Virus record (IMG/VR): IMGVR_UViG_2703718815_000004
DNA: 34,281 bases
Source: a virus
Lineage: Duplodnaviria > Heunggongvirae > Uroviricota > Caudoviricetes
Direction: 5' to 3' (one strand)
In this document: one piece after another, positions 32,059 through 32,474 of the stretch
Layout of the letters: every line of letters starts with the position of its first letter
Position numbering within the stretch: the stretch's first letter is position 1
Position numbers and translations under genes: made by a program
Notes under the pieces: model-generated
Told to the model about the DNA's origin: nothing
Databases searched by the model: none
Seen by the model: only the letters and a program-made list of their open reading frames with translations

Positions 32059-32214
32059 TTACTCCTCAGGTTCGTAAACTGTGAAGACAGCGATCTCCGT
32101 CTGACCGGTTCGGATTCGCACCTCGCAGAGGTCTTTCCTCGTTACCAGTGCCGTCACAATGACGGTTAAACAGATGACGATCAGGGCGATTAACATCGCC
32201 TTTTGCTGCGTCAT
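32059..32214 (-). CDS. hokD: Hok/Gef-family type I toxin (HokD/RelF-like)
   Basis: 51 aa from the ATG at 32214: MTQQKAMLIALIVICLTVIVTALVTRKDLCEVRIRTGQTEIAVFTVYEPEE. Shares the Hok signature (CLT...TRK.LCE.R.R.G..E.A.F..YE) with plasmid Hok and is near-identical to K-12 HokD as recalled. Confidence 0.85.
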   Translation of the reverse strand: MTQQKAMLIALIVICLTVIVTALVTRKDLCEVRIRTGQTEIAVFTVYEPEE

Positions 32215-32474
32215 AGCCTGCTTCTCCTTGCCTTTCGGCACGTAAGAGGCTAACCTACATGTGCAAAGCATGAAATTGGCCTCAGATTAATGTTAAGCGT
32301 CTTGCCGGACGCGTAATGTTAACTGGGGCTTTTCTCTGTCTGCCTTTTGGTGTTCATGCCCGAGGCAGATAGCCTCAAGCACCCACAGCAATTCTACTTA
32401 ACTCTCCTTTTCCCGCAAACCGTTTTTTCTCACGGAAATAAGTCGTTATTGTAATTAACTGACATGACGATTAA

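Follow-up and report, generated by a model that had tools for sequence, protein, structure and literature searches.

The closest described relative of the locus analysed here is hokW-mokW-sokW of the Stx2 phages 933W and Sakai prophage 5 (Sp5) (AF125520; PMC8621323). HokW is toxic and is neutralised by sokW, which is made from its own promoter (Takada et al. 2021, PMC8621323). Lysogens contain both RNAs before induction. Upon RecA-dependent induction with mitomycin C, sokW is lost and HokW builds up in the inner membrane, ≈1 h before the endolysin; when hokW-sokW is deleted, growth arrest occurs ≈40 min later and phage release is halved (PMC8621323). The hok/mok/sok (parB) system of R1, whose Hok is only ≈35% identical to the one described here, is plasmid-borne and has a proven role in post-segregational killing (PSK). 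The hokD (relF) gene of the Qin prophage of K-12, which is defective and lambdoid, lies downstream of relE, which takes the place of the promoter, tac, ucb, the mok start and the Sok target and promoter.

We analysed a hok locus on the minus strand of a 34,281-nt stretch of viral DNA (IMG/VR virus record IMGVR_UViG_2703718815_000004), referred to in its full length as the window. The genes on this strand are all co-directional and run from the replication region through a 98-aa ORF, a 298-aa ORF, hok, a rem-like ORF, DUF1367 and YbcO, then to a Q-like antiterminator, a pertussis-like toxin, holins and endolysin. With the replication genes on one side and Q on the other, the cassette, which extends from about 32418 to 31998, belongs to the nin region of a Rac/lambda-like E. 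coli prophage; this prophage carries its pertussis-like AB5 toxin in the stx position. The 701 nt from 31900 to 32600 are 100% identical in two RefSeq E. coli genomes, STEC005 and P393-F10, in which the gene is annotated hokD. (The window cannot be equated with the STEC005 prophage: whole-window identity is 95–96%, with indels and a replaced segment of ≈890 nt.) With an identical sequence in RefSeq, and with the family, its RNA mechanism and the hokW-sokW lineage all published, the locus is already known.

Our analysis indicates that the locus is, very probably, a complete and autonomous hok/mok/sok type I toxin–antitoxin cassette of the hokW/hokD lineage. Since it appears to have its own promoter and its own antisense repressor, it would be an autonomous module rather than the passenger of an upstream operon that hokD is in K-12. 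The first-pass annotation, made from the sequence alone, had placed a HokD/RelF-like toxin gene with its leader at 32059–32470. The locus was correctly found, but it does not end at the stop codon, which leaves out a 61-nt 3′ UTR (32058–31998) and the fbi element within it. The elements are listed here from the 5′ to the 3′ end of the minus strand, followed by those of the plus strand:

32413–32418, minus strand: −35 hexamer (TTGCGG) of the putative hok promoter, followed by a 16-nt spacer and the −10 hexamer
32391–32396, minus strand: −10 hexamer (TAGAAT) of the putative hok promoter, with the conserved GGGUGC 5′ end 6 nt further downstream
31998–32384, minus strand: full-length mok-hok mRNA, 387 nt, with ends predicted from the fold and from collinear homologues, which end at the same base
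32373–32384, minus strand: tac element, GGGUGCUUGAGG, located at the 5′ end of the mRNA; fbi is its partner in the minimum free energy (MFE) structure
32323–32329, minus strand: ucb or anti-Shine–Dalgarno element, GCCCCAG, predicted to sequester the mok Shine–Dalgarno (SD) sequence
32280–32283, minus strand: mok SD, GAGG, 8 nt upstream of the mok ATG
32059–32271, minus strand: mok reading frame, 70 codons, ATG at 32271, in frame with hok and sharing its stop
32246–32250, minus strand: putative dcb core, GCCUC, complementary to the mok SD and contained in the invariant block GCCTCTTAC
32224–32229, minus strand: hok SD, AAGGAG, preceding the hok coding sequence
32059–32214, minus strand: hok toxin coding sequence, 51 aa, intact and full length, ATG at 32214 and stop at 32061–32059
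32073–32076, minus strand: UACG motif at the Tyr47 codon, in an invariant TTACGAA, a candidate TadA A-to-I recoding site (Tyr to Cys)
32032–32051, minus strand: 3′ UTR stem-loop, 8 bp with a GAAA loop, core cgggga-gaaa-tccccg at 32049–32034
31999–32011, minus strand: fbi element, CCUCAAUGCACCC, pairing with tac
32228–32256, plus strand: Sok promoter placed by homology, TTGCCT (32228–32233), 17 nt, TAACCT (32251–32256)
32263–32333, plus strand: predicted Sok antisense RNA, ≈71 nt, with tail, hairpin and U-run

The 51-aa ORF had been taken for a Hok-family, HokD-like toxin, and this identification is borne out. Its product, MTQQKAMLIALIVICLTVIVTALVTRKDLCEVRIRTGQTEIAVFTVYEPEE, matches the Pfam family HOK_GEF (PF01848) with 78.1 bits against a cutoff of 22 (E = 3.6e-22) over profile positions 1–42 of 42, and PHROG 251, “MokW-like host killing”, with E = 1.4e-30. 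Along with the full-length profile match it has the length of ≈50 aa, the N-terminal hydrophobic helix and the conserved periplasmic Cys of the family; in a comparison of Hok proteins, C15, T17 and L29 were invariant and C30 was present. The protein is identical to HokD of K-12 at 48 of 51 positions, differing by K2T, V41I and A46V, and to HokW of 933W at 45 of 51, with K2T setting it apart from both. A truncated or frame-disrupted remnant had been allowed for, and the alignment revealed neither frameshift nor truncation. The identical gene is named hokD in RefSeq (WP_198582151.1), a name that reflects protein similarity only. Toxicity has been reported for HokW (PMC8621323) and also for HokD. 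By likeness to these two, the Hok of the window is a putative inner-membrane toxin, with K2T/V41I/A46V as a candidate variant. The TTACGAA sequence around the Tyr47 codon was invariant in the 19 loci of our alignment, and the introduction of a preprint reports A-to-I editing to Cys at the UUACGAA position of hokC, hokD and hokE (bioRxiv 10.1101/2025.08.07.668861).

The absence of an upstream relBE, also proposed in the first-pass annotation, was confirmed: the three upstream ORFs gave no Pfam match to RelB or RelE, and no relBE is listed in the RefSeq annotation of the collinear STEC005 prophage. The arrangement is not the relBE-hokD operon of K-12, as the gene upstream of hok is the 298-aa legumain-like ORF and the 5′ elements are present.

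Homology with 933W, the Stx phages and the plasmid copies starts at ≈32431. A putative promoter for hok itself lies just upstream of the conserved +1, where the stretch from −35 to −1 is identical to that of 933W hokW at 33 of 34 positions. This promoter was below the threshold of a generic sigma-70 scan (8/12), and its assignment rests on homology to 933W rather than on a consensus score. The leader, which had been expected to hold the hok mRNA 5′ elements, measures 170 nt and does contain tac, ucb and dcb along with the mok SD and ATG. Positions 32384–32209 match Rfam RF01794 with 113 bits against a gathering score of 59 (E = 2.8e-25). The Rfam family is named “sok”, but the match belongs to the hok strand, with its end at the hok AUG, and thus marks the mRNA leader and not Sok.

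The existence of a mok frame had been left undecided. The frame found here has its own SD (GAGG), starts upstream of hok and crosses the hok start in frame. A GAGGC-N7-9-ATG arrangement occurred at the same position in all 14 loci examined. Mok is in frame with hok also in 933W (mokW), in hokC (mokC) and in several chromosomal loci, and in the +1 frame in R1-type loci, IncY P1-like copies and some loci of Kluyvera and Enterobacteriaceae. The position of the mok SD and ATG is kept whatever the frame, which agrees with the published conclusion that it is the translation of mok, and not the Mok product, that matters (PMC9841398). The GCCTCTTAC block that holds dcb was invariant in 19/19 aligned loci, and a role for dcb may be assigned by analogy with R1 (PMC9841398).

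A sok promoter, on which the first-pass annotation had likewise reserved judgement, can be recognised on the plus strand. It is identical at 29/29 positions to those of 933W and Rac-SA53 (KU052037), and it aligns hexamer for hexamer with the R1 sequence TTGCGC-17-TATCCT. The 933W-type promoter has been validated experimentally: the same −10 (AGGTTA on the hok strand) was replaced by primer YO-421 in a “pro-less” sokW mutant, which unmasked HokW toxicity (PMC8621323). Like the hok promoter, it fell below the generic sigma-70 threshold (7/12), and generic terminator scans likewise missed the Sok terminator; the promoter is assigned by homology to mapped or mutated promoters, not by consensus scores. 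The predicted RNA has a 15-nt free 5′ tail, a hairpin (32278–32330) and a U-run (32331–32337), the long hairpin being followed by UUUUCUCU, and folds with −30.2 kcal/mol (z = −4.9). Its tail spans the mok start codon (32271–32269), and its two ends coincide exactly with those of sokW as annotated in 933W (L001 2669–2599). At the level of sequence, Sok thus has a promoter and a terminator of its own and complementarity to the mok initiation region.

The full-length 387-nt RNA was predicted to fold with an MFE of −151.8 kcal/mol (z = −6.27 relative to shuffled sequences), with its 5′ and 3′ ends paired. The structure is closed by a 12-bp helix between tac and fbi, a duplex of −21.5 kcal/mol (z = −3.7), and in the same fold ucb pairs with CUGAGGC (32285–32279), by which the mok SD is sequestered. 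When the last 32 nt were removed, tac re-paired with the adjacent GCCUCGGGC (32366–32358) as a 5′ hairpin. Such refolding of the 5′ end once the 3′ end is gone is in line with the model of metastable and open forms for R1 (PMC9841398); MFE prediction of the 3′-truncated RNA did not yield the exact open form.

The pairing of tac with fbi is conserved. Escherichia, Kluyvera, Citrobacter and Photorhabdus gave 24 distinct loci in which the two are complementary, at 340–382 nt from the 5′ end, with compensatory forms such as GGGCGC/GCGCCC, UUGAAG/CUUCA and, in R1, GGCGC/GCGCC, as opposed to GGGUGC/GCACCC. In an alignment of 19 loci, the tac–fbi helices (helices 1 and 2) were 97–100% paired, with compensatory changes from UA to CG and from GC to AU. 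The helix between ucb and the SD (helix 6) was paired in 88.6% of cells and had six pairs changed on both sides. For the structure as a whole, 85.3% of cells were paired compared to 36–43% when the partners were slid by 1–3 columns, the former value being somewhat inflated because the structure was taken from the window sequence, which was itself part of the alignment. Pairs changed on both sides numbered 33, against 19.3 ± 2.8 in shuffles.

A short hairpin just 3′ of the stop codon had been noticed in the first-pass annotation. It is indeed found at 32049–32034, and extends to an 8-bp stem-loop at 32051–32032 (helix 20), which was 91% paired among the 19 loci, with three pairs changed on both sides. 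We considered this stem-loop as a terminator and rejected it: there is no U-run behind it, fbi follows at a distance of 20 nt, and its covariation is that of an internal stem-loop. By its position, it appears to correspond to the last stem-loop of the truncated or processed R1 hok mRNA, which protects that RNA against 3′ exonucleases (PMC9841398).

The alignment to hok/sok and hokD loci that the first-pass annotation had proposed was made with 933W, Rac-SA53, an IncY plasmid, hokC/mokC, K-12 hokD and an R1-type locus, and the elements of the window were found to be intact. Identity to 933W, and to many Stx phages, is 93.8% over 434 nt (32431–31998), with near-identity in the promoter, leader, Sok and coding sequence that places the locus in the hokW-sokW subgroup. 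As in the window, the 933W Sok is 71 nt with the same ends and mok is in frame; in both, the Sok hairpin is extended by 18 nt compared to R1 and hokC. The locations differ, as the 933W cassette is found near the right genome end beside L0136–L0142, while that of the window is in the nin region. The mok/hok region of Rac-SA53 is closer still, with 97.4% identity, and shares the downstream flank: a rem-like gene, then DUF1367, YbcO, Q and the pertussis-like toxin. Rac-SA53 differs from the window upstream of the −10, where 18 of 34 promoter positions are identical and the upstream genes are others; it also has three substitutions in the Sok-tail region, and K2 in Hok where the window has T2.

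With K-12 hokD the homology starts only ≈15 nt before the ATG. From there on, 150 of the 156 nt of the coding sequence are identical, the 3′ UTR stem-loop and fbi are the same, and a rem gene follows in K-12 as well. For annotation, this means that the name “hokD” here very probably stands for a complete cassette, of which mok and Sok are unannotated, and not for the crippled K-12 type. R1 keeps the elements in the same order and at the same distances (tac, ucb, mok SD and ATG, dcb and the Sok promoter, hok, the 3′ stem-loop and fbi), but differs in the +1 frame of mok and in having a terminator after fbi. In hokC/mokC (gef), mok is in frame, and tac, fbi and the stem-loops are conserved at ≈72% nucleotide identity; that locus differs in lacking the 18-nt insertion in the Sok hairpin, in its core-chromosome site and in a terminator after fbi. 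The copies on P1-like IncY phage-plasmids are ≈87% identical.

Reading these elements, with their integrity and conserved pairing, in the light of the R1 and hokW paradigms, we would expect transcription, processing, toxicity and triggering to take the following course. The weak promoter at 32418–32391 would produce the 387-nt mRNA, in which the 5′ tac and 3′ fbi pair, closing the molecule; with the mok SD held by ucb, the full-length RNA would be inert. Slow trimming of the 3′ end back to the stem-loop at 32051–32032 would remove fbi, upon which the 5′ end would refold and the mok ribosome-binding site would open. Ribosomes translating mok would then reach the hok start, leading to synthesis of Hok. 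As long as transcription is normal, the tail of the short-lived Sok would pair with the mok start region, blocking translation and marking the duplex for RNase III. Once Sok drops, Hok would enter the inner membrane and kill or permeabilise the cell. The most likely trigger would be prophage induction, as has been shown for hokW-sokW, while prophage loss, or transcription shut-off by a superinfecting phage, might serve as alternatives.

The absence of the canonical terminator after fbi could be a sign of decay. Most relatives, including K-12 hokD, have acccgcttcggcgggttttt or a similar terminator hairpin 8–20 nt after fbi, and homology of the window to these terminator-bearing relatives stops exactly at GCACCCG; a terminator scan of the minus strand from 33762 to 30981 found no terminator-like site. 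The locus might accordingly be a remnant, decayed or silent in the manner of hokD and the IS-disrupted hok loci of K-12, in which the ORF is kept and regulation or expression is lost, and the RefSeq name hokD, with a K-12 namesake devoid of any 5′ elements, would be in keeping with this. We consider it highly improbable. The terminator directly after fbi is absent from Rac-SA53 and 933W alike, and since hokW-sokW of Sp5 works without it, it must be dispensable, an accessory rather than a defining element; furthermore, all 5′ and 3′ regulatory elements are intact and pair as in functional relatives, and the ORF has no frameshift or truncation. The lack of a terminator-like site has another consequence, in that read-through from the early operon after induction should cross the cassette in the sense direction. 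It is conceivable, and we put it forward tentatively, that the toxin is made mainly from the PR operon transcript after induction, with sense read-through silencing the Sok promoter, and acts as an accessory in the timing of lysis. The co-directional early genes upstream (ydaT-like, replication, DUF1627, DUF977 and DUF551) agree with such a scheme, as do the observations in Sp5 that sokW is lost and HokW appears only on RecA-dependent induction, ahead of the endolysin, and that less phage is released from the deletion mutant. On the other hand, hokW mRNA is present before induction and does not rise afterwards (PMC8621323), the 933W cassette is located at the opposite end of the genome, so that PR read-through is unneeded for the phenotype there, and a long 5′ extension would leave no free 5′ tac.

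The first-pass annotation had framed the function of the locus as a choice between addiction and exclusion. Both are kept as candidates, but this choice omitted a third role, that of faster lysis and phage release (PMC8621323), and of the three we would rank a lysis helper first, by analogy with hokW-sokW. If the cassette does act as hokW-sokW does, both the timing of lysis and the yield of phage would be modulated by it. As an addiction module, it would stabilise the prophage, because cells in which the prophage is lost or excised would lose Sok first and be killed by Hok made from the stable mRNA. All elements for the R1 mechanism are present, the annotators of 933W assigned a role in “prophage maintenance”, and hok genes have been reported to be four-fold enriched in prophages. 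However, the chromosomal hokA, hokB and hokC loci gave no PSK when tested, according to a preprint (bioRxiv 10.1101/2025.08.07.668861), showing that an intact sequence is no guarantee of activity; deletion of hokW-sokW had no effect on growth absent induction (PMC8621323); and prophage loss without induction is rare, so that selection would be weak. Addiction is therefore, in our estimate, rather unlikely. Abortive infection is less probable again: a superinfecting lytic phage would shut off transcription, Sok would be depleted, and the cell would die from Hok before the invading phage has matured. R1 hok/sok is reported, as cited in PMC8621323, to cut T4 plating by 42% and plaque size by ≈85%, but this is known only for a multicopy (high-copy) plasmid. 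The cassette of the window does lie in a variable moron region next to a second candidate accessory cassette, which could point towards exclusion, whereas hok is reported not to be enriched near defence systems, and PADLOC gave no match for Mok or Hok.

In the 75-nt Sok region, the window differs from 933W by seven substitutions, all of them in the 23-nt stretch to which the Sok 5′ tail is complementary, and the specificity of the two Sok RNAs may therefore differ. Among 10 close relatives, the mean pairwise difference was 0.27 in the segment of the mok start and Sok tail, compared to 0.035 in the Sok stem and 0.06 in the coding sequence. By this measure, no part of these prophage hok cassettes, near-identical elsewhere, evolves faster than the 23-nt segment, and the divergence of this segment suggests that Sok specificity is diversifying. 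One could extend this to a Sok specificity private to each prophage, combined with a direct trigger in which read-through from the early operon interferes with the convergent Sok promoter; we regard these two related possibilities, taken jointly, as unlikely. If specificity were private, the Sok of one prophage would not neutralise the Hok of another in polylysogens.

Directly upstream of hok is the pair of genes for 98 and 298 aa, with conserved counterparts in E. coli prophages and as far away as Pseudomonas-type contigs. The pair gave no match in Pfam, PHROGs, PADLOC or NCBIfam. The 298-aa protein has an invariant His/Cys dyad, and its AlphaFold model, a confident one (pLDDT 92), matches legumain and C13 peptidases; our literature search found no report linking C13/legumain proteins to phage defence. 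We considered whether hok and this pair might form one system and rejected it, as Pseudomonas-type and Enterobacter loci have the pair but no Rfam match to hok/sok, and 933W, Rac-SA53 and plasmids have hok cassettes but not the pair. The legumain-like two-gene cassette is independent of hok, and is the more novel and unusual of the two.

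The part of the hok/mok/sok cassette that varied most among otherwise near-identical hokD/hokW-type cassettes was a short segment at the start of mok, the reading frame that overlaps hok:

32285-32263, minus strand: 23-nt segment from the mok SD to codon 3, complementary to the 5' tail of the antisense RNA Sok

The mean pairwise difference was 0.27 in this Sok-tail segment, versus 0.035 in the Sok stem, and all seven differences between the window and the Stx2 phage 933W in the Sok region fell inside it. This variability may reflect private Sok specificities. The Rfam model RF01794 (“sok antitoxin”) matched 32384-32209 on the minus strand, which is the sense strand of hok, covering the leader as far as the hok AUG, rather than the antisense strand. 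Read literally, this annotation would put Sok on the wrong strand.

Most hok loci, K-12 hokD among them, have an intrinsic terminator after fbi, the 3' element of the mok-hok mRNA, whereas none was present in the window at 31998-31783 (minus strand). In its place is an AT-rich spacer of ≈215 nt that runs to a rem-like ORF, the N-terminus of which is 48% identical to K-12 Rem, and the hok transcript may read through into this ORF:

31782/31734-31558, minus strand: rem-like ORF (PHROG 340)

Directly upstream of hok is a conserved two-gene cassette (33705-32475, minus strand), itself preceded by a promoter-like signal:

33823-33762, minus strand: promoter-like site TTGACG-18-TATATT (10/12), directly followed by a 12-bp hairpin
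33705-33409, minus strand: 98-aa ORF, first gene of the pair
33371-32475, minus strand: 298-aa ORF, second gene of the pair

The 298-aa protein had no match in Pfam, PHROGs, PADLOC or NCBIfam. Its 236 homologues (45-74% identity) are found in Enterobacterales, Pseudomonas, Burkholderia, Xanthomonas and Vibrio, and His96 and Cys133 are invariant. The AlphaFold model (pLDDT 92) was matched by Foldseek to legumain, asparaginyl endopeptidase and GPI-transamidase (C13, clan CD; E ≈ 2e-8). The 298-aa-type gene is always preceded, with a 33-nt gap, by a gene for a 93-aa protein homologous to the 98-aa product (43-56% identity), both in contigs of Pseudomonas type, where it neighbours SIR2_2 and PLDc_2 genes, and in a prophage of Enterobacter. 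The cassette is independent of hok, and makes an uncharacterised candidate for an accessory or defence module. The TTGACG/TATATT hexamer pair occurs again after the Q-like gene, at 30073-30044, and the repeated site could be a late-promoter-like signal that has been duplicated and drives the moron.

A second gene pair (28848-27630) separates the Q-like antiterminator from the holins:

28848-28123, minus strand: pertussis-toxin-S1-like ADP-ribosyltransferase (Pfam Pertussis_S1, E=4e-15; Scabin-like)
28112-27630, minus strand: 160-aa ORF, the next gene

The same position is occupied by Shiga toxin in Stx phages. The comparable genes are eplBA in the Escherichia phage Rac-SA53 and, in the collinear prophage of E. 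coli STEC005, one annotated as “subtilase family AB5 toxin binding subunit”.

The otherwise collinear STEC005 prophage does not share a segment of ≈890 nt (29241-30132) that in the window contains two Rfam RNA matches, just downstream of the Q-like gene, and an ORF6N-domain gene. Another, full-length Rfam match is in the tail/baseplate region, adjoining antirepressor-type moron genes:

30612-30070: Q-like gene
30037-29963, minus strand: isrK (76.7 bits)
29937-29856, minus strand: C4 antisense RNA (59.8 bits)
29809-29249: ORF6N-domain protein
5090-5173, plus strand: sRNA-Xcc1 (78.1 bits)
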